The notes under the pieces: generated by a model
Told to the model about the DNA's origin: nothing
The model's database searches: none
The model's input: only the letters and a program-made list of their open reading frames with translations
From: Obrimoposthia wandeli
Taxonomy: Eukaryota
Reading direction: 5' to 3'
Assembly (NCBI GenBank): GCA_977020255.1
Contig: CDROCS010000745.1
Span: 682,001-746,000 of the forward strand
DNA length: 64,000 nucleotides
Shown here: positions 2 to 22,835 of the stretch, in pieces
Position numbering within the stretch: position 1 is the stretch's first letter
How the letters are laid out: every line of letters starts with the position of its first letter
Program-made: the position numbers and the translations under genes

Positions 2-142
2 TGTTTCCAATTGACGGAACGAACGAGCCAACCTCACGAAGTCAAACAAGGAATAAATGAAGCGATGTATTTGATCGAGAATGTATTACAGAGACGAATT
101 GACGAAAACGGAGGTTGGGCAAAATTAAGCGACTACGCTAAA
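2..142 (+). CDS. C-terminal part (alpha5/alpha6-BH2) of a Bcl-2-like domain; frame open to the window edge
   Basis: CFQLTERTSQPHEVKQGINEAMYLIENVLQRRIDENGGWAKLSDY resembles Bcl-xL C...[23 protein letters not shown] in motif and spacing. No stop upstream within the window; BH1 is not visible. Confidence 0.6.
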
Positions 143-2100: not shown

Positions 2101-5100
2101 CACCATCATCACGAGAACGAGTTGCGAGCCCTCAAGAAGGAACAACACCAAACGAGAACCATGATGCGAGAACCAAGAAACTATCGAGACGACAACGACG
2201 ACGATAATGATAGTCCAGGAGTATATGCAAAGATACCAGGAAAACCAAAGATTCCGTTACCAGACAAGGAAGAAGTAGCGTTAAACCTATATCCAATGAA
2301 GGAACTAAAGGAGGAAAAGGAAAAGTTCAAGAGAGGCATCTTAATGATAAGATGGCCTAAAGTGAGCTACAGTGAAATTCCACAAGCAGAGGAAAAAGAC
2401 AAAAAAGATAATTCCAGAAGAATTCTGAAGTCTAGGATATCCAATGAGAATCCAAATGCTCCACCACAAGTAGCAGTAACATTGAACGGAAGAGAATATC
2501 TTGCCGAAGTTGATACCGGATCAGCAGTATCAGTGCTAAGTAAAGAAATCTTGTCATCAAAAGAATTAAGAGAAGTATGTCCTAGAAAACAGACATTTGT
2601 TAACGTGAATGGTACAGATGTAGTGTCGGAAGGAACACTGAAATGTACATTGAATATCGATGGAAGAGCATTACAGTTAAATGCTAGAATATTCACAGAT
2701 TGCGGTAGTCCAGTCATGATTGGGATGGACGTAATACGAATGTTTGAAGGAATAATTATACTACCAAACAACAAGAATTATAAGAATGACAGTTCAGTGA
2801 GAGAGATAAAAATGTTGAGAGGACCTATAGTCGAAAAGGAAAAATGCACTACGTTCCGTATGGGAGGTTCGTACCCAGACAGAAAACAGGAAGCGCTAGC
2901 AAAGTCGATACTTCACTACAAAAATGTAAATTTCGGACCACAAGATACGACGAGGAGAAAAATAACATATGTAAATCTGTCAGAAAGGGATCCCATGAGA
3001 TTCGAGAGAAAGAGACGAAACATATTAGAACAGTACTATTCAAAAGGAATGGCACGTAAAATGGCAAGATCAGGTTTAGAAATGTTAAACGCAACAAGCA
3101 GTTATGGTCAGGAGATAGTAGTACGATGCGTATGGTGTAGAGTAAAGTTTAGAGAATGGGAACAGAATGAAAACCCAATGAGACGTCATAAAAGAGATGC
3201 ACCAAATTGTCCATTTCTTTTGAAACTGAAAACGTCAAACGTACCAGAAATCCAAACGGGAAAAGCACCCGATTTCGATTACAGTAACGGGATTCCAAAA
3301 GGAGAATCAGCTCTAATAACAGGAAGAGTAATAACGAATAGTCGAATTGAAGATATATTCGAAGTTATGCGAGAAGTGAACGAATGTGACGAACAATATC
3401 GAGAAGTAACTTTCGAAGATCCAAGACTTAAAAAATTGGCAAAAAAGGGACTTTTTGCTATAAAAAAGGATGGTAAAGACGTAATTAAATGCCACAAGTG
3501 TAAAAAAGAACGAATCATCGACAGATATACTCTTGAGCTACCTAAGAAAATTTTACATCATGAATTTTGCGAATTTTGTATTTTTAAAAACAAAATAAAG
3601 CAAAAAGAACAGAAAACCGAATGTATAATCGAATACCAGATCACACGGAAAGAGATTTTGGCTCAACAAGACACACCGGTAGTGTCATTCGTGAGAAGGT
3701 TATATCCAAAAGAAGCAGAAAGAATCAGAGAATTGGTAGAATTAAAAATAAAAACTACGCGAAACGGATACGGATCGATTTTTGAATTACTGCGAGATAA
3801 AGATGACAGTACAATTGAAACAAAAGAGAAAGAGTACATAAATGAACTAGAATACGTACTAGAAGATCCGGAATGCGCAGTTTGCATGGTCAACAAAATA
3901 GAAGTTGCCTTTCTACCATGCGGACATGTAAGAACATGTCGGAGATGTGCAAACGAAATGGTATCATGTCCAATTTGTCGAAGAATAATAGATCGACAAG
4001 TGAGAAACATTAGATTTCACTATCCAAACATAGGAAGTGGACTGACAGAGTGTAATAATTCGATAAATACAATATACCACATGGGAAACATAAATGGAGC
4101 ACAGCGACCAGCAGCTATCATTAGAGTAAATAATTTAAGAGTAAAAGCCTTAATTGATACAGGTGCTGTAGCTTCGATAGTAAGTGAAGACTGTTTGACA
4201 GAGGAACAGAAACGAACAATGGCAGAGCCGGATGAGTTCTTGGTATCGGTCAATGGAGACCCTGTTAAAGTGACGGGAATATTACCATGTACATTTATAA
4301 TTGGACGTAATACGATCACTATACCAGTTAGAATCATGAAAGAATGTCCTGAACCTACAATTTTAGGAATGGATGTACTATCACAACTTAAAGGGATAAG
4401 TATTGATTTACAAGATCCAAGATTGAAGGATAGCACATCAAACAGAAAAATAAACCAAATTGACGTAATTATAGAGAATCCTATAAAAATCGGTAAAAGA
4501 TCACAATTTCTCATTCAAGGTCACACATTATCAGAAGATAAAGGACCAGTTGTGTTCGAACCATCACGAGATTTCATAGAGAAATACGAATTACCAGTTG
4601 TGAGTACAGTATGCCTGATCGAAAACCACAAAATACCAGTTAGACTGATGAATACAACCAACAATGACATTCTATTATTGACATTCTATTATAGAGGAAT
4701 GAGGTTGGGAAAGATAGCACAGATGGAGAATCCCACCGTGTGTGCTATGAAACTCGATAAAGATACGAACGATTACGAAGAAATAGTAATCCAATCAGAA
4801 AGACTGACAACTAGAGAAAAGAAACAATTACTTGATCTAATACATAAATTTCCGAAAGTAATTGCAAAAAATCCATATGACATAGGAGAAACACCTGTCA
4901 TAAAACATACAATACCACTGACAGAAGACAAAGTAGTCAGAAGAAGACCATATCGAGTACCATTACAATTACAAGATGAAGTAAAAAGTCAGATTGAAGA
5001 TATGTCTAAAACAGGAGTAATTAGACCGAGTTTTTCGCCATTCTCAGCACCTGTGGTGTTGGTAAAAAAGAAGGATGGGAAAATGAGATTCTGTATAGAT

Positions 5101-7338
5101 TTCAGAGAACTGAACAAGATCACAAGAAAAGATGTGTATCCATTACCTAGAATCGAAGAGATGCTCGATAAATTGGGTAATTCAGATTATTTTACGACAT
5201 TGGATTTGCAGAGTGGATACTGGCAAATCGAGATAGAGGAAGAGGATAAACACAAAACAGCCTTTTCCTGCGGAGATGGATTATACGAATGCGAAAAAAT
5301 GCCATTCGGACTGACAGGAGCTCCAGCAACATTTCAGCGTTGCATGAATTTTGTACTCGCATCGTGTGCAAACACGATGGTTTATATCGATGACATAATA
5401 ATATTTTCGAAAACGTTCGAAGAACATTTAAAAAATCTTGAAGTTGTATTTAAAAGACTGGAAAATGATAAATTAAAAGTTAAACCTACAAAATGCGAAT
5501 GGGCTAAAGAGCGAGTAACATTTTTAGGACATATAGTATCGAAAGAAGGCATTCGACCTGATCCGGCAAAGATCGAGAAAGTAAAAGCGCATTTAGCACC
5601 AAAGACCGTTAAGGAGATACAAAGTTTTTTAGGTCTTGCGAATTATTATAGACGATTTGTTGAACATTTTTCAGATATAGCAACACCATTGAGAAAGTTG
5701 ACGAGAAAAGATGAGAAGTTCATATGGGGAGAAGAAGCCCAACAAGCGTTCGAGCATTTAAAAGAAAGACTGATAAAAGCACCAATATTAGCGTTTCCAG
5801 ATATAAACCGACAATTCATACTCATGACAGATGCAAGTAACTATGCTGTAGGAGCAGTATTGGGACAAGAGGATGACGAAGGAAGAGAACACGTCATTGC
5901 GTATGCAAGTAGAGGATTAAACAGAGCCGAAAGAGGATACTCTGTTATCGAAAAGGAATGTCTAGCCATAGTGTATTCATGTAGACAGTACAGACACTAT
6001 TTGCTAGGACAAAAAGTATTCCTGTATACAGATCACAAACCACTACAGTTCTTATATAAACATAGAGATGAGATGAGTAGATTAAACAGATGGTTTCTAA
6101 AATTGGCCGAATTCGATCTAGAAATCCGTTATAGAACCGGAAAGTCGAACGGCAACGCAGATTGTTTATCGAGATTGACAAATGTAGACGAGAAAGGAAA
6201 CATAATTCCAGAAGAAGATGAAACCAATGACCAAAAAGGAGAAGCAAATCTACTGACGATTTTGCTAAAGACGGGTAAAATAGACAAAGAGATCATCAAA
6301 GAACAGAAAGAAGATGAAGAACTGAGTCTAATTAAAGAATTGCTGGTGAAAGGAGATCTAAACGATGAAATGACGAAAAAATACTCGATAAAAGAAGGAA
6401 TCTTGTATATTGTCAATAATGTCGGAAAGATAGTAGTAGTAATTCCGAAGTCATTGAAAACAGCAGTGATGATCCAGTATCACGACGGAACACTAGGAGG
6501 ACATCTGTCAGGGCGAAAGACAATAGCCAGAATCAAAGAAAGGTACCATTGGGATGGTATGGAAGACGACATAAAACAATGGTGTAAACAATGTAAAGTA
6601 TGTTTAACCAGAAAAGACACCGGAACTCGTACTAAAGTTCCACTGAAACCAATGCCAGTTCCCTTGGCACCAATGGAATTCACAGCAATGGATATATTGG
6701 GACCATTGAGAGAATCAAGTAAAGGAAACAAGTACGTCATAGTATTTACAGACTATATGACGAGATGGGTAGAAGCATATCCCATGCAGAACCAGAAAGC
6801 TGAAACAATAGCACAAATCTTAGTGGAAGAGATAATATTTCGATATGGAGTGCCTAGAAAGTTGTTAACGGATCAAGGTAAGAACTTCACTGGAGAAGTC
6901 ATAAAAGCAGTATCGAAGATATTCGGAATCATGAAGTTACAAACTTCACCATATCACCCACAGACAGATGGTCTGGTAGAAAGGTTTAATAAAACTTTAT
7001 GTATGATGGTACAATCCTATTGCTCGGACAAGCAAGAGGATTGGGATAAATATTTACCTTCATGTTTATATGCTTACAGGAATTCAGTTCGAGAGGCGAC
7101 GGGTCACACACCATTCTATCTGATGTATCTCAGACAGAACAATATGCCGATGGATCTGGAGTGGACCGAGCCAACATCTCAGTACCTAGAAACTGAACAA
7201 TACATTGTCGTCATGAAGGAAAGGTTACAAGATGCTTGGACCAAAGCCGGATTGAAGTTGAAATTCAATCAAGAAGGTTACAAGGAACAATACGACAAAA
7301 AGCAAAACCACATGAATTTAGAGTCGGAGATCAAGTGA
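1921..7338 (+). CDS. pol: Polyprotein: env TM/tail - aspartic protease 1 - BIR - degenerate BIR - RING - aspartic protease 2 - RT - RNase H - integrase
   Basis: AEVDTGS (~2512); CVWC..WEQNENPMRRHKRDAPNCPF (BIR, ~3050-3220); CHKC..HHEFC (~3420-3580); CAVC..FLPCGHV.TC..C...CPICR (IAP-type RING, ~3870-3995); LIDTGA (~4156); LDLQSGYWQI, MPFGL, YIDD; TDASNYAVGAVL; HDGTLGGH..CKQC; AMDILGP, TDQG, GLVERFN. Confidence 0.95.
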   Translation: MGKFLVLGQLFSGIIGIYVIIKFVQVIIAQVLSTYSLYRITGITWQLIIGCFPFLAKYLMHHHHENELRALKKEQHQTRTMMREPRNYRDDNDDDNDSPGVYAKIPGKPKIPLPDKEEVALNLYPMKELKEEKEKFKRGILMIRWPKVSYSEIPQAEEKDKKDNSRRILKSRISNENPNAPPQVAVTLNGREYLAEVDTGSAVSVLSKEILSSKELREVCPRKQTFVNVNGTDVVSEGTLKCTLNIDGRALQLNARIFTDCGSPVMIGMDVIRMFEGIIILPNNKNYKNDSSVREIKMLRGPIVEKEKCTTFRMGGSYPDRKQEALAKSILHYKNVNFGPQDTTRRKITYVNLSERDPMRFERKRRNILEQYYSKGMARKMARSGLEMLNATSSYGQEIVVRCVWCRVKFREWEQNENPMRRHKRDAPNCPFLLKLKTSNVPEIQTGKAPDFDYSNGIPKGESALITGRVITNSRIEDIFEVMREVNECDEQYREVTFEDPRLKKLAKKGLFAIKKDGKDVIKCHKCKKERIIDRYTLELPKKILHHEFCEFCIFKNKIKQKEQKTECIIEYQITRKEILAQQDTPVVSFVRRLYPKEAERIRELVELKIKTTRNGYGSIFELLRDKDDSTIETKEKEYINELEYVLEDPECAVCMVNKIEVAFLPCGHVRTCRRCANEMVSCPICRRIIDRQVRNIRFHYPNIGSGLTECNNSINTIYHMGNINGAQRPAAIIRVNNLRVKALIDTGAVASIVSEDCLTEEQKRTMAEPDEFLVSVNGDPVKVTGILPCTFIIGRNTITIPVRIMKECPEPTILGMDVLSQLKGISIDLQDPRLKDSTSNRKINQIDVIIENPIKIGKRSQFLIQGHTLSEDKGPVVFEPSRDFIEKYELPVVSTVCLIENHKIPVRLMNTTNNDILLLTFYYRGMRLGKIAQMENPTVCAMKLDKDTNDYEEIVIQSERLTTREKKQLLDLIHKFPKVIAKNPYDIGETPVIKHTIPLTEDKVVRRRPYRVPLQLQDEVKSQIEDMSKTGVIRPSFSPFSAPVVLVKKKDGKMRFCIDFRELNKITRKDVYPLPRIEEMLDKLGNSDYFTTLDLQSGYWQIEIEEEDKHKTAFSCGDGLYECEKMPFGLTGAPATFQRCMNFVLASCANTMVYIDDIIIFSKTFEEHLKNLEVVFKRLENDKLKVKPTKCEWAKERVTFLGHIVSKEGIRPDPAKIEKVKAHLAPKTVKEIQSFLGLANYYRRFVEHFSDIATPLRKLTRKDEKFIWGEEAQQAFEHLKERLIKAPILAFPDINRQFILMTDASNYAVGAVLGQEDDEGREHVIAYASRGLNRAERGYSVIEKECLAIVYSCRQYRHYLLGQKVFLYTDHKPLQFLYKHRDEMSRLNRWFLKLAEFDLEIRYRTGKSNGNADCLSRLTNVDEKGNIIPEEDETNDQKGEANLLTILLKTGKIDKEIIKEQKEDEELSLIKELLVKGDLNDEMTKKYSIKEGILYIVNNVGKIVVVIPKSLKTAVMIQYHDGTLGGHLSGRKTIARIKERYHWDGMEDDIKQWCKQCKVCLTRKDTGTRTKVPLKPMPVPLAPMEFTAMDILGPLRESSKGNKYVIVFTDYMTRWVEAYPMQNQKAETIAQILVEEIIFRYGVPRKLLTDQGKNFTGEVIKAVSKIFGIMKLQTSPYHPQTDGLVERFNKTLCMMVQSYCSDKQEDWDKYLPSCLYAYRNSVREATGHTPFYLMYLRQNNMPMDLEWTEPTSQYLETEQYIVVMKERLQDAWTKAGLKLKFNQEGYKEQYDKKQNHMNLESEIK

Positions 7339-7907
7339 TGATATTTTATCCAGTCATCGAACCAGGTCTATCGTTTAAACTTCATAGACCATACAAAGGA
7401 CCATACAAGGTGATCCAGACAACCTCAACAAATTTGAAAGTAATCAACGAGGAGAATCGGAACAAGGAGCCGATGATTGTACATGCAAATCGATGCAAAT
7501 TAGTACCAAATAAAGATAATGCGTCACGATATGAGTTAAGATCACAGAAATCGAAATCGAATACCAATACCATTAAACTTACACGAATGGTAAGTGATCG
7601 GAACTACATAAACATGATGACGAGTGGTAGCGAGGAAAAACCAGCGAGAATTGGTATGCTCAGAATGAAGTACCAAGAGGAAAAGGAAGTAATCCGACAC
7701 ATCGCACCACAAGAGATATTAGAAGAAGACGAAGAGATAATAGTTGTTTTCGAAAAAACACAACCAACAGATGTGGCGAAAGAAGTCATTGTGAAAGATG
7801 CACTGACAAACGAATTTCTGTGCGAACTTAGAGTGTCATACTACGACGGAAATACATTAGTCCAGCACTTTATCAAAATTCCAATGTGTTTACGACTGAG
7901 AAAGTGA
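7236..7907 (+). CDS. Integrase C-terminal (GPY/F-type) region plus first TIG/IPT-like repeat; frameshifted continuation of pol
   Basis: FRVGDQVMI..KLHRPYKGPYKVI..VHANRCK is a typical Gypsy IN C-terminus. Adding one A to the A5 run at ~7287-7291 joins it to pol as YDKKAKPHEF. Confidence 0.85.
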   Translation: MDQSRIEVEIQSRRLQGTIRQKAKPHEFRVGDQVMIFYPVIEPGLSFKLHRPYKGPYKVIQTTSTNLKVINEENRNKEPMIVHANRCKLVPNKDNASRYELRSQKSKSNTNTIKLTRMVSDRNYINMMTSGSEEKPARIGMLRMKYQEEKEVIRHIAPQEILEEDEEIIVVFEKTQPTDVAKEVIVKDALTNEFLCELRVSYYDGNTLVQHFIKIPMCLRLRK

Positions 7908-10900
7908 TAATCGAAATCACATTGACACCAAACATAGTTGCATGGCAGAACTATGACAGTACTGAAGCAGGACTAGCCAGTCAGGAAGAAAAAGAACCGG
8001 CCGGTGGTCACATACTGCATGGTACACCAAAAAGACTCAAACAAGAATACCACGATGTAATAATGGTATTACGTAATTCACATGGGAAAAGAGATATCAT
8101 GAGAGTCCATTTAATCGACGCTGACACTGAAAAGATAATTTGTCAGATGGACACCAAATACTTTGATGGAAAGACAATTGTATGTTGTATACCAGAATCT
8201 CACCGGTTAGACACGGATCAAACGGAAGTATCTGTAAGGTTGAGCGTAATAGAAGGATTCCATTCGCCAACCCATCCGGAAGTGACTAACAATAAAATCA
8301 TCAAAGCAACGGCAGAGTTACGCATTGACAGCGGATACCGGAAGTGGGAAGCTAAAAATAAAAAACCACAAAGAATCAATATGATCCGAGAACAAGTAAC
8401 AACTTCAAACCAGCCAAAATATCATGCCGAAATAGTATCATCCGCACCAAGTGTAATTACATCGATAAACGACGAAATTATAATTTTACTAAAAAATCGA
8501 TGGCCGTCATCAACTGAGATACGAGTAAACTTAATTAATTATGCGAAGACACCGATATCTAAGCTGAATGTTACCTATTTTGATGGATTGTCCATCATGG
8601 GTAAATTGGAAACAATTGTCATGTGCTATGGAGCACAGTTCCAAGTTGAGATACTTAAAGATAGTGTGATACCGTATCCGATTCACAAATATGAAGGGGA
8701 AATCAATCCAATTATTCTAACCCCTTCATTAATTTCAGTCCAGACAGACATACCAGAATACCCTTCGAGCGAGTCTAGTGAAGACAGCGAACCGGAAAGT
8801 AACGATACAGAATCAACAGAATCCGAAGATAACATAATAGAGCGATTCGGAAGAACCATGGAGGTTGAATTCGCTAAAGAGAGCAGAAAAAGACAAAACA
8901 TAGAATTCGTGAAACAGAATATACAAGAAAGACGAATTAAATCTGCAGAAGAGACCGAGTCGGAAGAAGACTCAACAAAGGAACAGACATCAGAGACAAA
9001 GATGAATATCTCTCCAGCAATACGAATGCTGAGAGGAAAGAAACTGGCGAAACTATCCAACATCGACGAACAGATAGAGAAGAGATTAGAAAGACTAAAA
9101 CTTGAAGAGTCAGAATTAATGCCACCAATGAGTGAGATCATTCCAGGTAAGTTATACCTCGGAAATGTGGAGGATGCAACAGATGAAAAGAAACTGTTGG
9201 AACAAGGGATAACATATGTGATCAACGTTACAATGAATCACAAATCGCAATATCAGACGATCAGAGCTATGACATTAAGAGTAAAAGACTCAATGGACGC
9301 TAATCTTCTCGAATGGTTCGTAGAAACAAACGAAATACTTCACAGAGAACTCCGGAACCGAGGAAAAGTGTTGGTACATTGTCAGAAAGGAATTTCTCGA
9401 TCAGCAACTCTAGTATTAGCATACCTAATAAAGACTAGACGAATGCAGGTACTAGAAGCGTTAAAATACCTACAGGAGAGAAGAAGTATTGCAAACCCAA
9501 ATCTTAATTTTTTGGGGCAGTTGGCAAATTACCAACTTCTGTTGCAAGAACAAAGACGGATGGACGACATTCCTGAGGACCCAAAGGAAAAGAATTTCCT
9601 CCAAGCATTATCATTGACCGGGTTATTCTTAGCCGGAGTCGACAAAATTACACAAATAATGCCAAAAGTATTTTTATGTCATCCAGGAGATATAGATACT
9701 GCTGGATTAAAATTCCATAGTATCAACCGAGTAATCAACATTGTTGAAGTCGGAAACGAGATAATTAGTCTGTGTCAAAATACTGAAGATGACACCACTC
9801 GATACATACATGCTTCCAATCGAGAAATAAACGATGCACAACAACATCTGACGAAATTGACTCAAACCATCCAAGCTGAAGTCACAGAAGGAAACGGCGT
9901 TCTGATATATCAGAAAAAAGGTACAATGTTAGCGCCTACCATAGGTGTATCCTTGTTGGTAGAGTACCATGGTCACACGCCAGAAGAAGCGATGGTCTAC
10001 ATAAAACAGAATAGACCAAATACGGAATTCAAACCGTTACTCGTTCGAGAAATAGAGAAATACACCGAAAAGAGGAAGCAACAACGAGAAATAAATGAAG
10101 CTACAACAACAGTGCCCAGCTTTCAATACCAAAGATTGTTAGCAATAGGCTTGTTAAGTTGTCTAATGCCGATAACGGGAGCACAGGAGATAGGCTCCAA
10201 CCACGGAAATAGTTCCTGGTTCAACGAAATCCACAATTACACCATACAGTACCATACACCGGCACTGATGATGCTATTAGTGTTGTTAGGACTAATTGAT
10301 GTGTGGATCATCCGAAAATGTCTTCGATCTATGAGAACCGACAGTAAAAGATTTCAGTTTGTAAAGATGAAAAGACCAAATGGACCAACGAACAAAGTGC
10401 TTGTGTATCTAGACGAAAGGATCGAAGACAACATAGTAAATGAAGCGATATTTTACCCACAAAACAGAATACTGAATCAATTTCGAATAGATTATGAAGC
10501 TGACCGACAGCACACACTTGACCGAATATCAACAACATTCGCCGGATGCAAGCGGAGAAAACGAGTTGTAAAGGAAATACAAAAAGATGCTGATACAAAA
10601 GGACCAACGTATATATTCAACGGCGATGTCATCAAAACACGTGAGTATGGAAGTAAGAGAGTGATAATTGAAACAATGGAAGGACATAAAACATGCTTGT
10701 CCGCCAAAAATGGATTCGGAAAGTTGACGATACAAGGTAAACCAGTACAGTTGATTATCGGACGAGATGGAATCGAGGAGATGTCAAAACAACGACAGAC
10801 AACAAAACGAACCAATCAGAAACAGATATCTCTCAAACGATTGATAATTAAAACCCTTTGCAAAAGGTCAGTCAAGGCCCTGTGCACCGTTGCACAAGGA

Positions 10901-12799
10901 TTGATCTATGGAGTAGTAATTGGATTGGTACTGCAAGCCATGCCAACCAGTAAAGCCGAATTGATGACACTATCCGAATATAATTTACATTTGAGAAATC
11001 TAGACAACACCCTAGAAATAATCAAGACATCCCACAGTAGAGCCGTGATGATCATGTGTGTAAAAGGATGTCCAGGACGAATGTGTATAGTCCCAGCGAC
11101 CGAAATGATAACACTTAATGGACATTATGGAGTTAGTGTTGTCACATGTGAAGACTACATATTTGGACAAACTAAAATAGTGCTTCTCAGTGACATGTCC
11201 AACCAAAGTGCACACAAATTTAAAATATTAACCATCAAGAGTAAAGGAATACCAGCAGTACGTTACGGTATTCTAGAATTGGTTAATCCAATACTCGCAC
11301 TGATCATTGGATTTATAATATTAATATTGCTCATCTTGTTTTGTTGTACAAAGTTAGAGTTGAGATCAAAAAAGAAACGGCATGATCTCGCAAGACGAAC
11401 AGGTCAAATGAACTTACAAAAATTCAACACAATTATACCAAGTCCACCATTTCTAGATGAACCAGCACCAGAATACCAGCCAACGATATATGAACACATC
11501 GAGGAAAGACCGTACTATATGAGTAATTTGACTTGTTTCATTGAAGTTCCTGAGTTTAGGAATCGAACGATCATAGGAATCATGCTGATCATACAAATCA
11601 CCACTACCAAGGCTAGTTATGAGATCATGATCAGTAAATGGAGACAAGACGTAATACGGGCAGTATACATAGAAATCCCCCTACTAAAAACAAATCACGT
11701 AGTAGACATTCATCTACAGACGTCAGCAACTGACAATATCGATCAGAAATTGTATGTCATCCGACAGGTCAGAATAAAAATCGACCAAAATACACCCGTT
11801 TACAATTTAATATTATTGTATCATGAAAGAGTGTTATACCTACGGATAACAATATCAAAGAGGAAGCGGATTATCCAAAGTATCCGAACAAAGTCATTAA
11901 TATTGCCTAGAGATGAGCGCATCTGGAAAATTGTCGACAGGATTATGATCACAGGCAGACGACGTAAAACCGTATGGAATTCCGTTAGAATATTTTTCAG
12001 ATTGTTAGAAACTGACAGGGTGACAGTAATGTGTCCCAACCCAGATGGCGGAATCAGATTCGAAATCCAAAGCCAAATGTTAGTACCACATTTTAACACA
12101 GAATGTCTGTGTAATCGAATTGCCAGTAATACTACAGAGACCTCGACCATAATCATGATAATAACAGGTGAAATATTCTACATAACTCTAAGATACCAGA
12201 ACCGTCGATTTCGTAAATCCGGTATAAGTATCAAACCCAGGAAAATCATTCCCAAAAGACCAATCCTAGTCAAAAAGAAGGCAAAGGTAATCGAAAGTAA
12301 ACGCCATTCCAAAAAACCGACAGTGATCAGAACAAAGACAGAAGCGAAAGAAAAAGAGCTAAATCCCAGAAACCAAAGTACAATTATTAAGAGGACAAGA
12401 GTGAGGGGAACGATCCCACTAGATCCCAAACATCATTTCCAATCCAAAATAATAATACCTGTTCCATCAGAAACAAAACACCCAAATCCCCGAATTTTTA
12501 GAAAATCGGACATAATACATGGAAACCGATCAAAACCCATGGAAATGTCATTCGAACCGACAAACAACAAAATGAAGTACGATTATAAATCATCAGACAG
12601 CGGAATAACAGCGGTCAATGCCCTAATTGGAATGGCCGTAGTGTCAACAGCAGTGGTTTTATTGACAATCGTGTGCGTAAAAGGCAGTCAAGTATGCCCA
12701 GGAATACGACGAAAATGCGAAGGATTGCGATGCTGTGACACACCCACCATGGAGGAAGTGGAATTGCGACTCCTACCTCCGCCTCCCATCAAGATATGA
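7886..12799 (+). CDS. Accessory polyprotein: TIG/IPT-like repeats, acidic linker, dual-specificity phosphatase, pseudo-phosphatase, degenerate protease-like domain, three signal-peptide/TM units
   Basis: 1637-aa ORF. VLVHCQKGISRSATLVLAYLI (9377-9403) and NPNLNFLGQL form the MKP/DSP signature; a second DSP-like copy lacks HCx5R; several hydrophobic segments of 17-20 aa. Confidence 0.88.
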   Translation: MFTTEKVIIEITLTPNIVAWQNYDSTEAGLASQEEKEPAGGHILHGTPKRLKQEYHDVIMVLRNSHGKRDIMRVHLIDADTEKIICQMDTKYFDGKTIVCCIPESHRLDTDQTEVSVRLSVIEGFHSPTHPEVTNNKIIKATAELRIDSGYRKWEAKNKKPQRINMIREQVTTSNQPKYHAEIVSSAPSVITSINDEIIILLKNRWPSSTEIRVNLINYAKTPISKLNVTYFDGLSIMGKLETIVMCYGAQFQVEILKDSVIPYPIHKYEGEINPIILTPSLISVQTDIPEYPSSESSEDSEPESNDTESTESEDNIIERFGRTMEVEFAKESRKRQNIEFVKQNIQERRIKSAEETESEEDSTKEQTSETKMNISPAIRMLRGKKLAKLSNIDEQIEKRLERLKLEESELMPPMSEIIPGKLYLGNVEDATDEKKLLEQGITYVINVTMNHKSQYQTIRAMTLRVKDSMDANLLEWFVETNEILHRELRNRGKVLVHCQKGISRSATLVLAYLIKTRRMQVLEALKYLQERRSIANPNLNFLGQLANYQLLLQEQRRMDDIPEDPKEKNFLQALSLTGLFLAGVDKITQIMPKVFLCHPGDIDTAGLKFHSINRVINIVEVGNEIISLCQNTEDDTTRYIHASNREINDAQQHLTKLTQTIQAEVTEGNGVLIYQKKGTMLAPTIGVSLLVEYHGHTPEEAMVYIKQNRPNTEFKPLLVREIEKYTEKRKQQREINEATTTVPSFQYQRLLAIGLLSCLMPITGAQEIGSNHGNSSWFNEIHNYTIQYHTPALMMLLVLLGLIDVWIIRKCLRSMRTDSKRFQFVKMKRPNGPTNKVLVYLDERIEDNIVNEAIFYPQNRILNQFRIDYEADRQHTLDRISTTFAGCKRRKRVVKEIQKDADTKGPTYIFNGDVIKTREYGSKRVIIETMEGHKTCLSAKNGFGKLTIQGKPVQLIIGRDGIEEMSKQRQTTKRTNQKQISLKRLIIKTLCKRSVKALCTVAQGLIYGVVIGLVLQAMPTSKAELMTLSEYNLHLRNLDNTLEIIKTSHSRAVMIMCVKGCPGRMCIVPATEMITLNGHYGVSVVTCEDYIFGQTKIVLLSDMSNQSAHKFKILTIKSKGIPAVRYGILELVNPILALIIGFIILILLILFCCTKLELRSKKKRHDLARRTGQMNLQKFNTIIPSPPFLDEPAPEYQPTIYEHIEERPYYMSNLTCFIEVPEFRNRTIIGIMLIIQITTTKASYEIMISKWRQDVIRAVYIEIPLLKTNHVVDIHLQTSATDNIDQKLYVIRQVRIKIDQNTPVYNLILLYHERVLYLRITISKRKRIIQSIRTKSLILPRDERIWKIVDRIMITGRRRKTVWNSVRIFFRLLETDRVTVMCPNPDGGIRFEIQSQMLVPHFNTECLCNRIASNTTETSTIIMIITGEIFYITLRYQNRRFRKSGISIKPRKIIPKRPILVKKKAKVIESKRHSKKPTVIRTKTEAKEKELNPRNQSTIIKRTRVRGTIPLDPKHHFQSKIIIPVPSETKHPNPRIFRKSDIIHGNRSKPMEMSFEPTNNKMKYDYKSSDSGITAVNALIGMAVVSTAVVLLTIVCVKGSQVCPGIRRKCEGLRCCDTPTMEEVELRLLPPPPIKI

Positions 12800-12922
12800 T
12801 GAGTCAGAGGAGGTTGTAGATAAATTAGTGTGTGAAATATGTAGAAATATCTAGAAGTGATTGTACAAATAGTAGAAATATATAAAACTCATGTAGAAAT
12901 TAATCATCATCATGTATTTAGA

Positions 12923-13222
12923 ATGTCCGAAGAATGCCCAATATGTTTGGAAGATCTAACCGAACGAAGAACAAGACCCGAAACCTGCAACCATTTACAC
13001 CACGAGGAATGTTTATCGACATGGATCAGAACTTATGGACAGTTCGGACATCCAACATACCCTTGTTGCCCTGTATGCAGAAGACAATTCGCAAGATTCA
13101 TCATGTTAGAAACCAACCAAGAGGATGTATATGTACAGGTGGTATTCTGTTGGAAGAATTTCGGAGAGTGTTGGTGTTATTACTGTTTGTCAGATCGACA
13201 AAATCAGACCACTTTTGTGTAA
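12923..13222 (+). CDS. Small RING-H2 E3-ligase-like protein 1
   Basis: MSEECPICLEDL..CNHLHHEECLSTW..CCPVCR, plus a C-terminal CW..xCWCYYC motif. Confidence 0.85.
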   Translation: MSEECPICLEDLTERRTRPETCNHLHHEECLSTWIRTYGQFGHPTYPCCPVCRRQFARFIMLETNQEDVYVQVVFCWKNFGECWCYYCLSDRQNQTTFV

Positions 13223-13282
13223 ACATCACACAACCACCAGTCCTCAATCGAGCCCAAATTCAACATCAACCCTCCCACAGTA

Positions 13283-13588
13283 ATGTCTGGAGAATGTTCC
13301 ATCTGCTACGAGAGCATCGTGGACTTCTACACCAAGCCCAACAACTGCGACCACCTTTTCCACGTCGAATGCCTCGAGACGTGGATCCCCATCGCAAACA
13401 GCAACAATCCCCTCGACTTCCCAACCTGCCCGATGTGCAGAGCGACCTTCTCAGTACACTACGTGTACAACCAAGACAGCCTCCAAGCAGTGGTACCCAT
13501 CGTACACTGCTGGAAAACCATCTGCGATTGCTGGTGCTCGTTCTGCGTGGAGGAGCGAAGCACAGGCCAGCCCAATTCCCAACAATAA
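13283..13588 (+). CDS. Small RING-H2 E3-ligase-like protein 2 (paralog)
   Basis: MSGECSICYESI..CDHLFHVECLETW..TCPMCR, plus a C-terminal CW..CDCWCSFC motif. Confidence 0.85.
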   Translation: MSGECSICYESIVDFYTKPNNCDHLFHVECLETWIPIANSNNPLDFPTCPMCRATFSVHYVYNQDSLQAVVPIVHCWKTICDCWCSFCVEERSTGQPNSQQ

Positions 13589-13923
13589 TCGAAGGTAACT
13601 TTCTGACTTGAACGTGACATCATGAACTACCCTGTGTATCGCATACCGCGATAAATTAGCTACCATAATTGTAATCATAATTATATAATCTTGTGAACTG
13701 TAAATTGACCATTACCATTTTTATGTATGATGTTTAACTGAAATTGTAATTATTATACTGAATTTCTAAAAAAGACAATTTTTTATGCTTAGTGTGAATG
13801 CGTAAACATGCCTAAAATCGAAACAAAACTCGGTAGGATTAGATAACTAAGGATTCGTTTTGAAATAAAATTTAAATTAACGATGAGAACGGTGAACCCC
13901 AAATTGAAAGGAGTTATTTTCTT

Positions 13924-14459
13924 ATGCAGATGAAGTGCTCTGTATGCATGGAGAAGATTTGGGCGGTATCAGCATCCCCTGTCGGCTGCCGTCACAAATT
14001 CCACGAGGAGTGCCTCTATTTGTGGGCCAAGGCTCGACCCCCGGCCATATCACATGTCCACTGTGCCGGACACCCTTTGGCAAATGGACGCTCCAGAGCC
14101 GTGGAAGGCACAAGGGCACCCGATCGCCTGCCAGCTGCATTGGTGGCATACATTGCCAATGCTACGTGTGTCTCGCACGCCGGCGCGACACACAACTGGG
14201 CATCCGCGAGAGATGGCGGTCTAGTCGAGACTGCCACTCGTGGTTCCAGGCCAGACGTCTCTGGATAGAAAATCACGCGATGAACGGGCAGTATTTCGAC
14301 CTGTTTGTCGAGAGCCCACACCTAACCCGGAGCCAACAACTACACCTGTACAACGGGGACAGTCCGTCCTTTCCCGACCTACCCCTGGAGCAGGTTCTGC
14401 GCTACCTGGCCAGTCGGAACCAGCCGACAATTACAATTGACCTAACTTATGACAATTGA
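13924..14459 (+). CDS. RING-H2 protein 3, split by a 1-nt frameshift in a C-run (~14038-14042)
   Basis: MQMKCSVCMEKI..GCRHKFHEECLYLWAKARP joins (P)GHITCPLCRTPFGKW..CIGGIHCQCYVC in the next frame. Confidence 0.8.
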
Positions 14460-15598
14460 TCCTTTCCTCCCTTCTTTCCTTCCTAATCCTTGGTTATGCA
14501 TGTAGTTTTGTGTATAGATAATAATGTATAGTCTGAGACTTGCTCCAAATTATACATTATGTTTCCCACTAAAAACCGGGATTTTGAGAAATTTTGTTTT
14601 GGGCATGTTTGTTGAAGTTGAATGATTGATTTTGTAGGGATGAACCTAAAATCAACAGCCAGAGGCTTGTTTAAGTAAAATCGATACGTTCCGGGGACGT
14701 AACTTTTTTGGAACCCCCGAGGTATGTTAGGTTTGAGAATTAAGAAATTTAAATATTTTAGTCGATTAAATACTAAAATAAAAATCCTTGAAAGCAAGGT
14801 TGAAAATTAAATTAAATATTAATTTTAGTTTTAGAATTGAAATTAGTGGAATTTAGGGAAAAAATTAGGAGGACCACGAAGGTCGTGTATAATGTGAAAT
14901 GTATAAAAGTTAGATTAATTAACCCAAAAGTGCAACAAAAAGACACATTAACTAAGCAAAGAAGAAAAAAGGGAACAATATCGAACGTCAATCAAAATCG
15001 AACGTCAATCAAGGTAAGCACATTTTCGTGCAGTTAAATTGGAGTGTTTAAACTTAATTTTCAGCTGCCGCAAAAGACTCCAGTTGAAACCGCTGTCGAC
15101 ATTGCTGACTGACAGACAGGAGTTGCAGAATCGACTATAAAAGTCGTCGACAAGAAAACGAAATACACAACCGGAAAAAGCAATATCCCAATCTACCGAG
15201 AAATAGACCACAAAAAACCAAGGAAAACCAACATTGTCCCTAGCAGCAACCAGGTGGTTTTGTGATAGACTTGGAGATTTAATTATTGATTTAGCAAACT
15301 AACTGATTGGGAAATTCTCACGTTTCGTCACACAAGACTTAAAGATCAATCTATCACGGATTTGGGCAACGTCGTAACAGCGACATACAAATCGATTCTA
15401 TTCAACCGAACTCGATCTATCACGGAGCAGAGCTTGTGAACCAGTTCAATTGTTGTTCCAGTCAGCACTATATCAGCGAATTTTCATTCGGCAATTCAAA
15501 TTCAGTCAGCCGATCGGTTTTTGTGTTCGATCTCAGTATATTCCGGAACGCTTCAGGATATCTCAACCTCGAGACAAAAAACGTAAGAGAGATTACTA

Positions 15599-15857
15599 AA
15601 AATTGTCTCAATTGTCCTAAAGTTATCATAAAGTTTGACACTAAAATTGTCTAAATTGTCCTAAAGTTGTCATAAAGTTTGACACTAAAATTGTCTAAAT
15701 TGTCCTAAAGTTGTCATAAAGTTTGACACTAAAATTGTCTAAATTGTCCTAAAGTTGTCATAAAGTTTGACACTAAAATTGTCTAAATTGTCCTAAAGTT
15801 GTCATAAAGTTTGACACTAAAATTGTCTAAATTGTCCTAAAGTTGTCATAAAGTTTG
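15599..15857 (+). repeat. 44-bp tandem array (~6 copies) in LTR
   Basis: Unit AAAATTGTCTAAATTGTCCTAAAGTTGTCATAAAGTTTGACACT, nearly exact copies. Confidence 0.95.
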
Positions 15858-16205
15858 AAGAGAAGTTTTGTCTAAATTGACATAAAAGTTTGAAGAGAAG
15901 TTTTTGTCTAAATTGCCATAAAAGTTTGAAGAGAAGTTTTGTCTAAAATTGACATAAAAGTTTGAAGAGAAGTTTTTGTCTAAATTGCCATAAAAGTTTG
16001 AAGAGAAGTTTTGTCTAAAATTGCCATAAAAGTTTGAAGAGAAGTTTTTGTCTAAATTGCCATAAAAGTTTGAAGAGAAGTTTTGTCTAAATTGCCATAA
16101 AAGTTTGAAGAGAAGTTTTTGTCTAAATTGCCATAAAAGTTTGAAGAGAAGTTTTTGTCTAAATTGCCATAAAAGTTTGAAGAGAAGTTTTGTCTAAATT
16201 GCCAT
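15851..16205 (+). repeat. 35-37-bp tandem array (~9-10 copies) in LTR
   Basis: Unit approx. AAAGTTTGAAGAGAAGTTTT(T)GTCTAAATTGCCATA, with homopolymer length variation. Confidence 0.95.
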
Positions 16206-16576
16206 AGTTTTGGTATAAAGATAAAAGTTTGCCATTAAAGTTAAATTGGGAATTAAAGTTAGAGTTTGACATAAAAGTCACATTAATTTGAAAATCTATA
16301 ACTTGAGCTTATTCGCGAGTTAGAGGAACGACTCTAAAAACTCGATCACCCTTAACATAAAATCGATACGTGGTTCATCCCCACTTGTTGTAGAGACTTA
16401 CAGAAGTCTTAGGAGTTTTTACTATACTTTTTAGAAAATACGTACATAAACGTATTGTTGTGTTTTAGTTTCGTGAATTACAAATAAACAATTTCCTACA
16501 TTAGAACAAGTTGTTTTTTGCACCCTTCAGAATAAGAGACATCAAATCAAATACCTTCAGATAGTACAAGAGATAG

Positions 16577-18136
16577 GCAACCATAACACTAAGTAGGCCA
16601 CGACCAACTTTAAGACCTGCTTCTAATCGAACTCACGTTGGGGCCCTCCGCACTCAAGAGGCTCTATACCAAGTTTCGTATAGAAACCCCAACAAAATAA
16701 CTAAATACATTAGTACAAACGAAGTACCAACAGATGAAAAATTAAGAAAACATTTAAAAATTCACGAATCACGATACAAATATAGTAATGAAATATTATA
16801 TTATTTAAATGACAAAAATCTATATTCACTAGTTATTCCTAAAGAAATTCAGTGTCAATTACTTCTTCAATATCATAATGGAGCCCTAGGAGGACATTTA
16901 TCATCAAAAAAGACACATTCACGATTAAATTTAAAATACTATTGGATTGACATGAAAGAAGATGTAAAAAATTGGTGTAAAACATGTGAAATATGTCTTA
17001 AACGGAAAAATACTTTACGTACCACAAAAATACCTTTAAAGCCAATACCTTATTCATCAGCCCCTATGGAAACTGTTGCCATGGATGTAATGGGACCATT
17101 ACCTGAAACACCCCGAGGAAATCGATATATAATAGTATTTTCTGATTATTTTACAAGATGGCCAGAGGCTTTTCCAACACATGATCATAAGGCTGAAACC
17201 ATCGTGAAGGTTTTAGTCGAAAAAATTATTTTTACTTTCGGTGCACCCCGAAAATTATTAACCGACAAAGGTCCTGAATTTATAAATAATGTATTAGCGT
17301 CAATAGCTGAAATTTTTCACATAAAAAAGATCAATACAACACCATATCACCCTCAAACTGACGGGTTAGTAGAAAGATTTAATAGAACCCTCGAAGATAT
17401 GATGGCATCATACACAAACAACAACCAAACAGATTGGGATTTACACATACCTCCATGCCTTTTTGCATATAGAACATCAGTACATACATCCACAGGAGAA
17501 ACACCTTTTTATCTTATGTTCCTCAGAGATTCTCAAATGCCTATTGACCTAACATTACTACAACCTACTACACAATATTTAGAAATACCTGAATATAAAA
17601 TAGAAATTAGAGAAAGAATAAAACTAGCATTCGAAAAAGCTAAACTATTTGTAAAAAACATACAAGAAAATTACAAAGAATATTATGATAGAAGAACTAA
17701 GCCATCAAATATAAAAAGCGGAAGTAAAGTGATGATTCACAATCCACAAATTAATGTAGGATTGTCTCACAAATTATCAAAACCATACAAAGGACCATAT
17801 ACAGTCATTAGTACCAACGGAACCAACATAACAGCTAAACTAGATAATGAACCAAAATCAAAAGAAATAAGAGCACATATAAACAGATGTCGAGAAATAC
17901 CTGAGGAGAATACAAAAGTAAAAAGTCACAAATATAACTTAAGATCAACTAATGATAATACAGTTCTACAAATGTTGACAATAAAAAACTCACAAAAACA
18001 AAATAAAACTATTTTGAGTCATCAAACCAGAAATACAATAAAAATATCAATAAAAGAAATTGGTAAAATAATGATGTTATTGATAATATATTTTATAATA
18101 AAATATAACCTACTGAAAGTAAAGCAACAAACATAA
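16577..18136 (+). CDS. Gypsy integrase (HHCC, core, C-terminal) of element B; frame open from 16577, upstream of the tracked ATG at 16952
   Basis: YHNGALGGHLSSKKT..CKTCEIC; AMDVMGPL; TDKGPEF; GLVERFN; KPYKGPYTVI. Confidence 0.92.
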   Translation, partial: ATITLSRPRPTLRPASNRTHVGALRTQEALYQVSYRNPNKITKYISTNEVPTDEKLRKHLKIHESRYKYSNEILYYLNDKNLYSLVIPKEIQCQLLLQYHNGALGGHLSSKKTHSRLNLKYYWIDMKEDVKNWCKTCEICLKRKNTLRTTKIPLKPIPYSSAPMETVAMDVMGPLPETPRGNRYIIVFSDYFTRWPEAFPTHDHKAETIVKVLVEKIIFTFGAPRKLLTDKGPEFINNVLASIAEIFHIKKINTTPYHPQTDGLVERFNRTLEDMMASYTNNNQTDWDLHIPPCLFAYRTSVHTSTGETPFYLMFLRDSQMPIDLTLLQPTTQYLEIPEYKIEIRERIKLAFEKAKLFVKNIQENYKEYYDRRTKPSNIKSGSKVMIHNPQINVGLSHKLSKPYKGPYTVISTNGTNITAKLDNEPKSKEIRAHINRCREIPEENTKVKSHKYNLRSTNDNTVLQMLTIKNSQKQNKTILSHQTRNTIKISIKEIGKIMMLLIIYFIIKYNLLKVKQQT

Positions 18137-18838
18137 ATGACAATCAATCAATCATACAACAACAAACTAATAAAATTCGACTCAACAACTCATCTCATAA
18201 AAAATTTTGGATTAATAACAATAATACCTGAAATCACATCAATAAAGTTAAAAATTTCTCTTCTTACAAACAAAACAGGAAATGTGCAAATCACACAAAC
18301 AGATAGAAAACAAAATATAATTATTTCAGGAATAAAATCACAAAAATATACAATACCATTTTTAAGAACAGAAACACAATATAAAATAAGAATTAAGTCG
18401 AAATTAAAAAATATAACACTCTATGAAAGAATTATAGAAACTCACATATACCTAGCATCAATATTAAAAACAACAGCAAAATATATATCAAAACATAAAA
18501 TAATGATAAAATGGGAATTTCAACTAAAAATAGATGACTTAGATAAAGCCCTCATTAGAATTAGATATAGAGGACATAATGCTAATTTTTGGAAAGACTC
18601 AGAAAAACAATTAGAAAATACACAAACTAAAACAAATTTAACCATAGAAAATATAAGATATCCAGAGAAAATAATAATAGACAATAGAGAATGCGTAATC
18701 ACTAATAAACCAATAATGTACAGACAATGGAGTCAAAAGTTTGAAAGTTATAAAAATCTAACAAAATTAACAATTTTAGGAAATAAGATATCCAAACTAT
18801 ATCAACCTACAATTTTTGTGGTCGTTGGTCAGCAGTAA
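18137..18838 (+). CDS. Post-integrase accessory ORF with two fibronectin-III-like beta-sandwich segments
   Basis: YTIPFLRTETQYKIRIKS and HKIMIKWE..IRIRYRGHNANFW..LTIENI resemble FN3 motifs. It is in frame with integrase, immediately after TAA. Confidence 0.45.
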   Translation: MTINQSYNNKLIKFDSTTHLIKNFGLITIIPEITSIKLKISLLTNKTGNVQITQTDRKQNIIISGIKSQKYTIPFLRTETQYKIRIKSKLKNITLYERIIETHIYLASILKTTAKYISKHKIMIKWEFQLKIDDLDKALIRIRYRGHNANFWKDSEKQLENTQTKTNLTIENIRYPEKIIIDNRECVITNKPIMYRQWSQKFESYKNLTKLTILGNKISKLYQPTIFVVVGQQ

Positions 18839-19465
18839 AAATTAAGAAATATGTTAAAGAAATAACCACAAAACAATTGCTACATACCACAACATTTACA
18901 TCAAAAATTTACAGAGTTACAAATCAAGTTGAAATTACGGAAAAAATAAGAATTAAATTAAAATTAAAAACAACAGAAATAATATCCTATAAATCATTTA
19001 ATGAAAGTTTAAAAATGCACTATGGTAAACAAGAACATTCAAGGAATGAAGATAAAAAAGAACTTATAATAATAGTTATAGTAATCGAAATAATTACATT
19101 TATAAATCAAATATCATGGAAAATGTTAATTTTAAAAACATACAAAAATGATAGAAACAAAACAACGAAAACACTTTTGTGGGCCCCCAGGCCCTTTTAC
19201 TATTTATATTATTCAGAATTATCCATAAATACTGTAATAGAAAATAGAAAAAGAAATATAACACAATAATCAAATCCTTTTTAAAATAAAACCGTTTAAG
19301 TAACAAAAAATGTTAGTACTATTATGTAAATCTAAATTAATTAGGAAATAGAATAAAAATTTGATATATATATATTTTTAAAGACGATTTAATGAAATAA
19401 TATTAAAATAAAATCACCAGGAAACGCATCCTGAAATTTAATAATGGTTATTTTTAGATATAAAA

Positions 19466-19861
19466 ATGAACAGATTGGCAAAAGTTTGTAAAAAATGCAA
19501 AAAATTAGAGAAAAAGATTCGAGATGTTTCCAGACAGCATGACGACTACTATATAAAGATCACAACTCAAAATGAATCACTGAAACAGTTAATAAAACAA
19601 AGTGTGGAAGAAAAATTGAATAATGATTTAACAATTGACGAACTAGAAGGGAGATTGACACATAGTTTTGGCAGAATAGACAATTTAATACAACAAACTT
19701 TAAGTCAACGATCAACTATAGCCTCATTAAGAAGACAAATGATGACCTATAGCGACATGATAAACTTTTATATGACCATTAATCCTACTATCCCAACTAA
19801 TACAACACTTGATGATGGATATGACTCGGATATGAACATTGGTGAACAAAATTCTGGTTAA
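19466..19861 (+). CDS. Small coiled-coil protein of unknown function (element B accessory)
   Basis: 131-aa ATG ORF in AT-rich context with heptad-like composition; no family recognised. Confidence 0.4.
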   Translation: MNRLAKVCKKCKKLEKKIRDVSRQHDDYYIKITTQNESLKQLIKQSVEEKLNNDLTIDELEGRLTHSFGRIDNLIQQTLSQRSTIASLRRQMMTYSDMINFYMTINPTIPTNTTLDDGYDSDMNIGEQNSG

Positions 19862-20028
19862 ACTATAACCATACATCCTTCTTTTGTACAAATTGTCTAA
19901 CTTTTGTTAATAAGTTAATTTTCATGACAAATCCCACATACTGCATGGATAAGACTGATATTTTTATAACTTTAAGACTGTGAAATAATTATATTATTTT
20001 ATTCAACTTACAAATTGATTAAAGCAGA

Positions 20029-21197
20029 ATGGATAACAATCACCTGGATACGACTCCAGACCAGCTCACTCGGTCAGATCAAACAAAAAGCACAGCAAAA
20101 ATAGAAAGAGGAAAAACGGAAAATATGCCAGAAAGGTGGTTTTTAGCAAAATTCCTGTATCAAAAGATGCGTCAGTTTAGCATTGCATACTTTAGAAACA
20201 ACGGAGGAAGAAAAATGTTTTCAAATCAAACATTTCTTCCTAATAAGTTAAAAATTACCACAGAAGAAAGAACTAGCGCACTTATTTTTTCCAATGAAAA
20301 AAGACCAACCCATATGGCTCTCAGTGAAATATTCCCCAACATTAATTGTGAAAAAATAGATATTCACGTGGCACTAGGAGTAGCCCATTTAAAAACCAAA
20401 TCAGATAAGACATTAAACTTTCTGATGATAGGAAATCACACCTACACCTTACAAGCAGCTCAATTAGAAAATCAATATAGCATAAAAATAGGAAGAGGAC
20501 CAAATCTATTATTTATAGAAAAAATAAGAAAAGCAGAAGAACCTCAACAAATAGCCCTTTTTGAATTAAAAAACGCACAGAAACCAGCAATTTTATTCCT
20601 CGATTGCGAAATGGTGATATCAGTAGATAAACAGCCAGTTTTAGCAAGTGTTTCTATAATAAATTACATAGGTAACGTAATTATAGATACACTGTGCGTA
20701 ACTAGAGACAGAGTAAGAAATTACGTTACTAGAATAACTGGACTGTCAGATAGAAAGTTACAAGGATGTAGAGATGCTGATGAAGTAATTGAGGAAGTAA
20801 AAACATTGTGTATGGTAACATCATCGTAGGTGTGGGACTAACAAACGATTTAAAAGCTTTACGCCTACAGAAATGGATGTTATTCAACATTGTTGATTTA
20901 GGAATATCCAAAAGCATAAAATCAGAACTAAATCACAATCACCCAAATATTGGACTCGCCAACATGGTTCGGAAATACTTAAATATATAAACACAAAAAG
21001 GAGTCCACACTAGCATGGAAGATGCAAATCACACCCGAAAAATTTTCATAATGAAGGAGGAAATGTTGAATAGAGAGTTTGATTTGACCGAGGTGATGAA
21101 TCCACCATCTAGCGAGAACAACCCCTGTTCATCGTTCTCACATAAGACCGGAAACTCGGAGTCCGGTACACAAAACTCCCCGATTTTGTTGGATTAA
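20029..21197 (+). pseudogene. DEDDh 3'-5' exonuclease (REX4/ISG20-like) with N-terminal extension; frameshift ~20810 and stop at 20988
   Basis: FLDCEMV..LASVSII..YVTRITGL / GNIIVGVGLTNDLKAL..IVDLG..GLANMVRKYLNI*TQKGVHTSMEDA correspond to ExoI, ExoII and ExoIII motifs. Confidence 0.82.
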
Positions 21198-21489
21198 GGT
21201 AGTATTGTTATTATTTTATTTTGTTTTCATTCTTGTCTAAATTTTTAACGATATTTAACTTGACATGATTGTGATTAATAAAACATTGATCAGTTATAAC
21301 ATACAAACAACACTAGGTAACAATAGAAACAAGACAAAATAGTTTTACTAATAATTAAAATAAAAATTATAATTCTGAGAACAGAGACTTTTATGACCCG
21401 GAGGATTGTTGGGAAAATATATTAGCTATTTGTTTTAAAAAGAAAAATAAAAATATAAAAATTTTTAAAAAAATAAAAGGTAAAAAGGA

Positions 21490-22430: not shown

Positions 22431-22571
22431 TTAAGGCAGCTAATTTTACAAAATATGCAGAATTATTACTATTATTGCTTTTCAGAATATAACAACAAAA
22501 ATGCAATCTACCTATGATTATTAATTTGATTTTGCCAGAAATTAACCAATTTTTAGAAAGCTGAAAACACA

Positions 22572-22722
22572 GAATATTTATTTTATCATATATTTATCCG
22601 CAAAGAATATTTATTTTATCATATTGATATCCGCAAAGAATATTTATTTTATCATATTGATATCCGCAAAGAATATTTATCCGCAAAGAATATTTATTTT
22701 ATCATATTGTTATCCGCAAAGA
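22572..22722. repeat. 33-bp tandem array (~5 copies, some partial)
   Basis: Unit ATATTTATTTTATCATATTGATATCCGCAAAGA. Confidence 0.85.
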
Positions 22723-22835
22723 AAATTTATTGACAAGATTGGATAAGTGTTTGTGAATATATATTGGACTTTGCTTCTTCTCGTTTATTAACATAAGACC
22801 AAGGAAGGAAAGGTATTTTAACCAACACACCACTA

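Follow-up and report, generated by a model that had tools for sequence, protein, structure and literature searches.

The window, a stretch of 64,000 nucleotides from Obrimoposthia wandeli (assembly GCA_977020255.1, contig CDROCS010000745.1, positions 682,001 to 746,000, forward strand), opens inside a Ty3/gypsy LTR element of 23,727 bp, and for this reason the upstream DNA was drawn from the window's own 1.35-Gb genome. The 5′ LTR (2,236 bp) begins 7,033 bases upstream of the window, the 3′ LTR measures 1,970 bp, and the two, of the form TG...CA, are 94–98% identical in two blocks, with a 4-bp target duplication at the element's ends. The order protease, reverse transcriptase, RNase H and integrase, the LTRs and the target-site duplication are all present as in a Ty3/gypsy LTR element, and the whole sits nested in another env-bearing Ty3 element. 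In order, the element encodes gag, a ubiquitin-like domain (Pfam E 0.004, below the cut-off), an acidic linker, a Bcl-2-like domain, a signal, env (a Monjiviricetes-type fusion glycoprotein, PF24664, E 1.7e-77), a protease, a BIR-BIR-RING cassette, a second protease, reverse transcriptase, RNase H, integrase, two phosphatase domains and three RING ORFs. Natural open frames of 4,985–5,478 codons run through the Bcl-2-like domain, and a length of up to 5,478 codons implies one polyprotein that continues past the integrase; in the window copy this single frame is disrupted. The features within the window are as follows.

2–142, + strand: C-terminal part of a Bcl-2-like domain of ~135 aa (equivalents of the end of helix 5, helix 6, BH2 and helix 8); the remainder lies upstream of the window, past a frameshift in the window copy
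92–127, + strand: BH2-like motif; the first Trp is Arg here and is kept as Trp in sister family C
143–244, + strand: acidic, then basic polar linker, 34 aa
245–307, + strand: putative internal env signal peptide, starting with Met and with a Met-rich core from an ATG run; probable cleavage before LIAYDC, placed by eye
308–2200, + strand: env, Monjiviricetes-type fusion glycoprotein with C-terminal transmembrane segment (TM); frameshifted near 1915–1942 in the window copy
2470–2733, + strand: aspartic protease 1
3049–3996, + strand: IAP cassette (BIR, a second, weaker BIR, and RING)
4102–4395, + strand: aspartic protease 2
5062–6114, + strand: reverse transcriptase and RNase H
6442–7907, + strand: integrase (zinc finger, core and C-terminal part); frame break near 7200–7340 in the window copy
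9152–10054, + strand: a pair of dual-specificity phosphatase domains, of which the second is weaker, within ORF 7832–12799
12845–14268, + strand: three small RING-finger ORFs
14725–16694, + strand: 3′ LTR, 1,970 bp, TG...CA

The two aspartic protease domains of the one polyprotein (2470–2733 and 4102–4395) flank the IAP cassette. Downstream of the integrase (7832–14268) the first phosphatase has an intact-looking catalytic motif, and several hydrophobic segments are found.

Sequence and Structure of the Bcl-2-like Domain

A sequence-only reading of the window had proposed a captured Bcl-2 family gene fused in frame upstream of the env signal peptide. Its positions hold: RRIDENGGWAKLSDY lies at 92–136 of the + strand and is preceded by YLIENVL at 68–88, and a BH2-like word of the same form occurs once in the 127,996 six-frame codons of the window. 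The continuity that it described is borne out as well, with frame 2–1942 running uninterrupted from the window edge through the polar linker and the hydrophobic signal (245–307) into env. Upstream of the motif the window copy has only 42 open codons, a frameshift falling ~25–30 bases before position 1, within the Bcl-2-like domain, and the frame upstream of this break encodes gag with one CCHC knuckle and the ubiquitin-like domain. Most copies are open here: more than 120 open codons precede the motif in 18 of 20 close copies, and in 12 of the 20 the frame is open to the locus edge. Less durable was the argument from the spacing between a Cys and BH2, likened to that of Bcl-xL. The distance from this Cys to the final Trp is 38, and since the same Cys is Met in all five sister-family (C) copies inspected, the spacing carries no weight and was dropped.

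Comparison with the Pfam Bcl-2 model (PF00452), one of the checks proposed with that reading, gave a match in each of five queries, all of them weak (E 0.022–0.17; 12.9–15.7 bits against a cut-off of 31.4); for the young family, A, E values were 0.095–0.13. An HMM built from host Bcl-2 gives 5.8 bits for family A, as much as is reached by 30 of 4,936 shuffles, and hhalign of family A with a host Bcl-2 profile returns 9%, which still ranks first among 33 tiles and exceeds every one of 150 shuffles. A pattern search of the genome, with 202 matches against 2 in the control, revealed an older subfamily B (~80% identical) and the decayed sister family C, which accounts for 59 among the 150 matches listed and has a longest open frame of 285 codons. 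Families A and C align without gaps over 134 residues at 38% identity, and BH2, of which family A has lost the first Trp, is complete in family C. When a profile of 10 host Bcl-2 exons is aligned with one family-C copy, hhalign returns 89.9% (E 1.7e-6, score 41.1), the best of 120 shuffles scoring 19.5; five of seven family-C copies reach 78–90% with the host profile and the other two score poorly. Deletion of BH2 abolishes the signal (0.3% and 0.1%). With a family-C query against PDB sequences the best 60 matches are all Bcl-2 or Bcl-xL, at a best E of 0.16 and thus none significant.

Of the further motifs that the sequence-only reading had suggested looking for upstream, the signatures of neither BH1 (NWGR-like) nor BH3 are found in families A and C. 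Asn-Lys-Lys stands where most host genes carry Trp-Gly-Arg, and the BH3 signature Leu-x3-Gly-Asp is missing, its Gly-Asp absent whichever of two possible registers is taken. The BH1 site lies 49 residues from BH2 in the element domain and 51–52 in host genes; for these motif measurements locus L035 was left out as a pattern mis-hit, and locus L037 (62) carries an insertion. An N-terminal stretch of family C presumably resembles BH4. With its BH1 signature missing the domain is degenerate, in the manner of motif-poor viral Bcl-2s. When the genome was searched for other families that keep the whole BH2, only family C, host genes and noise came up, and none of the 15 PF00452 matches in the genome lies within a long element frame. 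Family A retrieved nothing relevant among PDB sequences, and an ESM Atlas search with it named no Bcl-2 and gave low recognition scores. Relatives outside the genome itself were found neither in protein collections nor among 1.84 billion representatives nor in viral and metagenome contigs, collections from which such genomes may be missing. A host Bcl-2 gene that merely adjoins an element was considered as a source of the motif and rejected.

Structure prediction followed by Foldseek had also been proposed, and recovers a Bcl-2 fold only when host sequences are supplied. Modelled from the single sequence, without alignment, the domain reaches pLDDT 40 and finds no structural match. With a host-seeded alignment (10 host Bcl-2 rows of 12) pLDDT rises to 72 and the top 29 structural matches are all of Bcl-2 fold, led by the domain-swapped deerpox protein DPV022 (rmsd 4.4, 115 aligned) at a Z of 10.0, which falls below the tool's caution mark for helical bundles; A52, N1L and A46 rank lower (Z 6.0–6.7) than BH3 binders. 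This model has a short helix 1–2 link, a trait common to it and motif-poor viral Bcl-2s. The host rows impose the fold, so that the confident model is circular and shows compatibility only. We nevertheless consider it highly probable that the domain has the Bcl-2 fold, an estimate made because of family C, the BH1–BH2 spacing and an independent published call in Burro elements.

Copies, Selection and the Signal Peptide

Domain matches number 11,670 candidates in the genome, and the 150 matches that were scored are all 100% identical in protein. In-frame stops in all copies, which the sequence-only reading had named as evidence against itself, are not seen: 39 of 50 sampled copies are without stop or frameshift across domain and signal, a share that is biased upward because the 50 are the best-scoring matches. 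The break at the env end of the window copy recurs in 6 of 20 copies, so that certain breaks may stem from misassembly or from hot spots. Across 50 young copies pN/pS of the domain is 0.11 (95% interval 0.07–0.17), with 0.10 from a second method; in the same copies the ubiquitin-like domain has 0.08, the acidic linker 0.26 and the N-terminal part of env 0.21, and values of 0.14 and 0.07 are obtained for the linker between domain and signal and for the signal. The Bcl-2-like domain is under purifying selection and among the most constrained parts measured, which shows that the replicating element needs the domain's protein. As selection is strong over the whole ORF, the constraint concerns the protein and does not show an anti-death role. 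The dS between families A and C is saturated and was left unused.

Sister family C (L229, L230; G000:C433:34500-50000) also has gag, ubiquitin-like domain, Bcl-2-like domain, env and both proteases, with no BIR-RING between the proteases in the one copy examined. The module would thus be older than the IAP at its site, and the IAP may be a later gain.

The sequence-only reading further held that the env signal could double as the C-terminal membrane anchor of the Bcl-2-like domain. In viral polyproteins, whatever precedes an internal signal remains in the cytosol, tethered until it is cut. The flavivirus C-prM junction, the HCV core-E1 junction and the foamy-virus Env leader each have a cytosolic module directly before a glycoprotein signal, tethered at least transiently; in these, a capsid or leader protein takes the upstream place, and a second cut often removes the anchor. 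The signal stretch of the present element, which lies ~40 residues past BH2 and has, judged by eye, a signal-peptidase-like end, could tether the Bcl-2-like domain to the ER in the same manner, and to this extent the topology allows the proposal. Its hydropathy (Kyte-Doolittle mean over 19 residues) is 1.45 against 2.32 for the env TM, the family-C signal having 2.13. The arrangement of signal then AYDC is also found in the enclosing element, directly after gag and with no Bcl-2-like match between gag and env; being present in a relative that lacks the domain, the signal is an env feature independent of the Bcl-2-like module. Judged from these features, stretch 245–307 is an ordinary env signal peptide. 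The linker before it is only 28% identical between families A and C. The hydrophobic core of the signal is an ATG repeat, of 5 codons in 39 of the 40 copies parsed and of more than 20 in L087. That Bcl-2 proteins need a membrane anchor was too strong a premise, as many, not all, carry a TM in the passages of PMC7022251 and PMC11209288 cited here. Our literature search, which was not aimed at the anchor idea, found no proposal of an env signal as Bcl-2 anchor; Grohme 2018 and Lee 2026 may treat it.

Discussion

The closest counterparts are the Burro elements of planarians, in which a ubiquitin/SUMO-like domain precedes a BCL-2 motif and env lies in frame between BCL2 and protease (PMC6431247). 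With these giant Ty3/gypsy elements (Burro/GYPSM1), as far as the cited sections describe them, the present element has in common a polyprotein of ~5,000 residues, a Gag with CCHC, BIR, a very high copy number, a ubiquitin/SUMO-like and a BCL-2-like domain, and a mononegavirus-type env in frame between gag and pol. Mitochondrial code 9 in the host is a probable further trait in common: with this code, that of flatworms and echinoderms, a mitochondrial-type COX1 of the present assembly gives the better reading, judged by eye at the one of two loci that is readable, and the genome is AT-rich. The architecture, a Bcl-2-like module in a Burro-type giant element, is therefore already published, and the locus described here is a further member. 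At 23.7 kb with ~2-kb LTRs, the element differs from Burro of S. mediterranea, which exceeds 30 kb (Burro size and expression in Schmidtea are supported by PMC11410931 and PMC8532177), and a length of 23,727 bp makes it Burro-type rather than one of Burro1–4 themselves. One CCHC was found here and 2–3 are given for Burro; two proteases flank BIR-RING in the present element, and the two phosphatase domains and three RING ORFs downstream of its integrase are absent from the Burro section of PMC6431247. These differences in size, knuckle number and phosphatase and RING cargo set the element apart, by description, as a separate family of the Burro kind. MATH, ankyrin and dUTPase-like domains gave no Pfam match in the frames scanned; the calls in the literature were made with more sensitive tools and differ from species to species.

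PMC6431247 suggests, in its Burro section, that these elements meddle with host apoptosis, and the BIR-RING IAP of Burro1 (B-IAP) is reported to protect stem cells (Lee et al. 2026, Dev Cell, as cited in PMC13465017). The present element, like Burro1 and being of one kind with it, bears an anti-apoptotic cargo of BIR-RING type; the study concerns the IAP. We found no test of the Burro Bcl-2-like domain in the literature searched, and Grohme 2018 and Lee 2026 may cover it. For the role of a Bcl-2 fold that has lost its motifs, poxviral proteins are informative. Recognisable BH motifs are lost from deerpox DPV022, vaccinia F1L, myxoma M11L and orf ORFV125, as they are from the element domain, and viral Bcl-2s without such motifs (DPV022, M11L) still bind Bak/Bax, whereas other viral Bcl-2 folds act outside the groove (PMC7022251, PMC11209288). 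The viral Bcl-2s treated in the cited parts of these two reviews all come from DNA viruses, and the four named are free-standing genes of large DNA viruses, in contrast to the retroelement polyprotein module described here, which is known from sequence and which, unlike them, has no dedicated tail anchor.

We put at about one half the probability that the stretch forms the C-terminal end of a motif-poor module of Bcl-2 fold, derived from a host and carried in a giant Burro-type polyprotein, most likely damping host cell death beside the element's IAP. A pro-survival role, the fold being granted, is slightly favoured. Settled are the place of the module between ubiquitin-like domain and env, its being in frame in most copies, its gap-free conservation in two families and the purifying selection on it; the domain order, which agrees with the one published for Burro elements (Ubi/SUMO-like, BCL-2, env, PR), also counts for this reading. 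The internal signal peptide would take env into the ER and then be cleaved, so that Gag, the ubiquitin-like domain and the Bcl-2-like module would stay cytosolic; the env TM would bring the chain back to the cytosol, where the element's aspartic proteases would separate the modules. The freed module would then most likely act as do poxviral Bcl-2s without BH motifs and, alongside the BIR-RING IAP, restrain the death of host cells, so that those expressing the element survive. The hydrophobic stretch would be env's signal first, and any tethering of the module a by-product, maybe a transient one. As to the capture of a Bcl-2-family domain, joined in frame ahead of env, the sequence-only reading was probably right and anticipated by the Burro literature; the BH1 and BH3 signatures that it suggested looking for are absent.

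The same fold might instead have a closed or repurposed groove, like that of vaccinia A52, A46 and N1, and serve as a scaffold in signalling or immunity, or in particle assembly beside Gag, with no binding of BH3 peptides. The loss of the BH1 Trp-Gly-Arg and the BH3 Gly-Asp in families A and C, and in family A of the first BH2 Trp also, is what such a groove would lead one to expect, the neighbouring cargo (ubiquitin-like domain, RINGs, phosphatases) is of a signalling type, and viral Bcl-2 folds with roles outside the groove are known (PMC7022251, PMC11209288). Motif loss is no obstacle to BH3 binding in DPV022, F1L and M11L, however, according to the same sources, and the A52-type proteins trail the BH3 binders in the host-seeded model, biased as it is; we regard this alternative as unlikely. 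The proposal of the sequence-only reading, that the cleaved signal peptide stays attached as a lasting ER anchor and gives the module the topology of tail-anchored Bcl-2s, agrees with the in-frame order and the topology, with the constraint on linker and signal and with the more hydrophobic family-C signal. It appears quite improbable given that the family-A core is short and weak, that the signal occupies the same position in the relative without a Bcl-2-like domain, that the poorly conserved linker could be a protease site, and that the signal, having an initial Met, could belong to a separate env message.

Least probable, and in our estimate very much so, is a helical domain of some other origin in which the BH2-like word arose by chance. 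All sequence signal does depend on BH2, and the unbiased fold and Atlas tests were blank; against this stand the full BH2 of family C with what we take to be a BH4-like N-terminal stretch, and a BH1–BH2 spacing close to that of the host. The independent published identification of a BCL2-like domain at the corresponding position of Burro elements likewise argues for the Bcl-2 fold (PMC6431247).

A more ambitious version of the preferred reading, the host-derived module that damps cell death, can be put forward as a doubtful conjecture: a viral-type Bcl-2 without BH1 and BH3, held at the ER by the env signal and possibly a helix-1-swapped dimer, would block host Bak upstream of the IAP. One polyprotein would then carry a two-tier anti-death system, and a Maverick/Polinton virus found in this genome would share its IAP and phosphatase parts. 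The locus adds test material, namely a constrained Bcl-2-like module whose family counts thousands of candidate copies. Binding of the module to host Bak or BH3 proteins would make it a viral-type Bcl-2 borne by a retroelement, and would give Burro-type elements a second means of keeping their host cells alive.

Other Mobile Elements

A high-copy Maverick/Polinton-like element (L239, L240, G000:C777:599000-615500; also L106, L121 and L107) encodes an integrase, an A32-type ATPase and an adenain protease. Its long inverted ends carry a BIR-RING IAP of 341 aa that is 33% identical over 345 residues to the IAP cassette of the Ty3 element (E 6e-53), together with a phosphatase 30% identical to the first DSP domain of the Ty3 element, plus a TBP-like ORF. 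From these similarities, the Maverick/Polinton-like and Burro-type elements may have exchanged cargo. The Ty3 element that encloses the one described here (window 16695–22794, L021:1-2867, L022) has env between gag and protease and is without a Bcl-2-like domain; its LTR (window 19725–22794) holds an ORF at 20023–20829 that has no Pfam match and whose end resembles, by eye, a DEDD exonuclease. Many stop-free bacterial-type COX1 genes occur in the assembly, in which bacterial contigs appear to be included. Elsewhere in the window, 34754–35308 resembles a Maverick ORF by eye, and an intronless ubiquitin hydrolase ORF at 61656–62921 on the − strand (PF00443, E 2.5e-20) is possibly mobile-element cargo.
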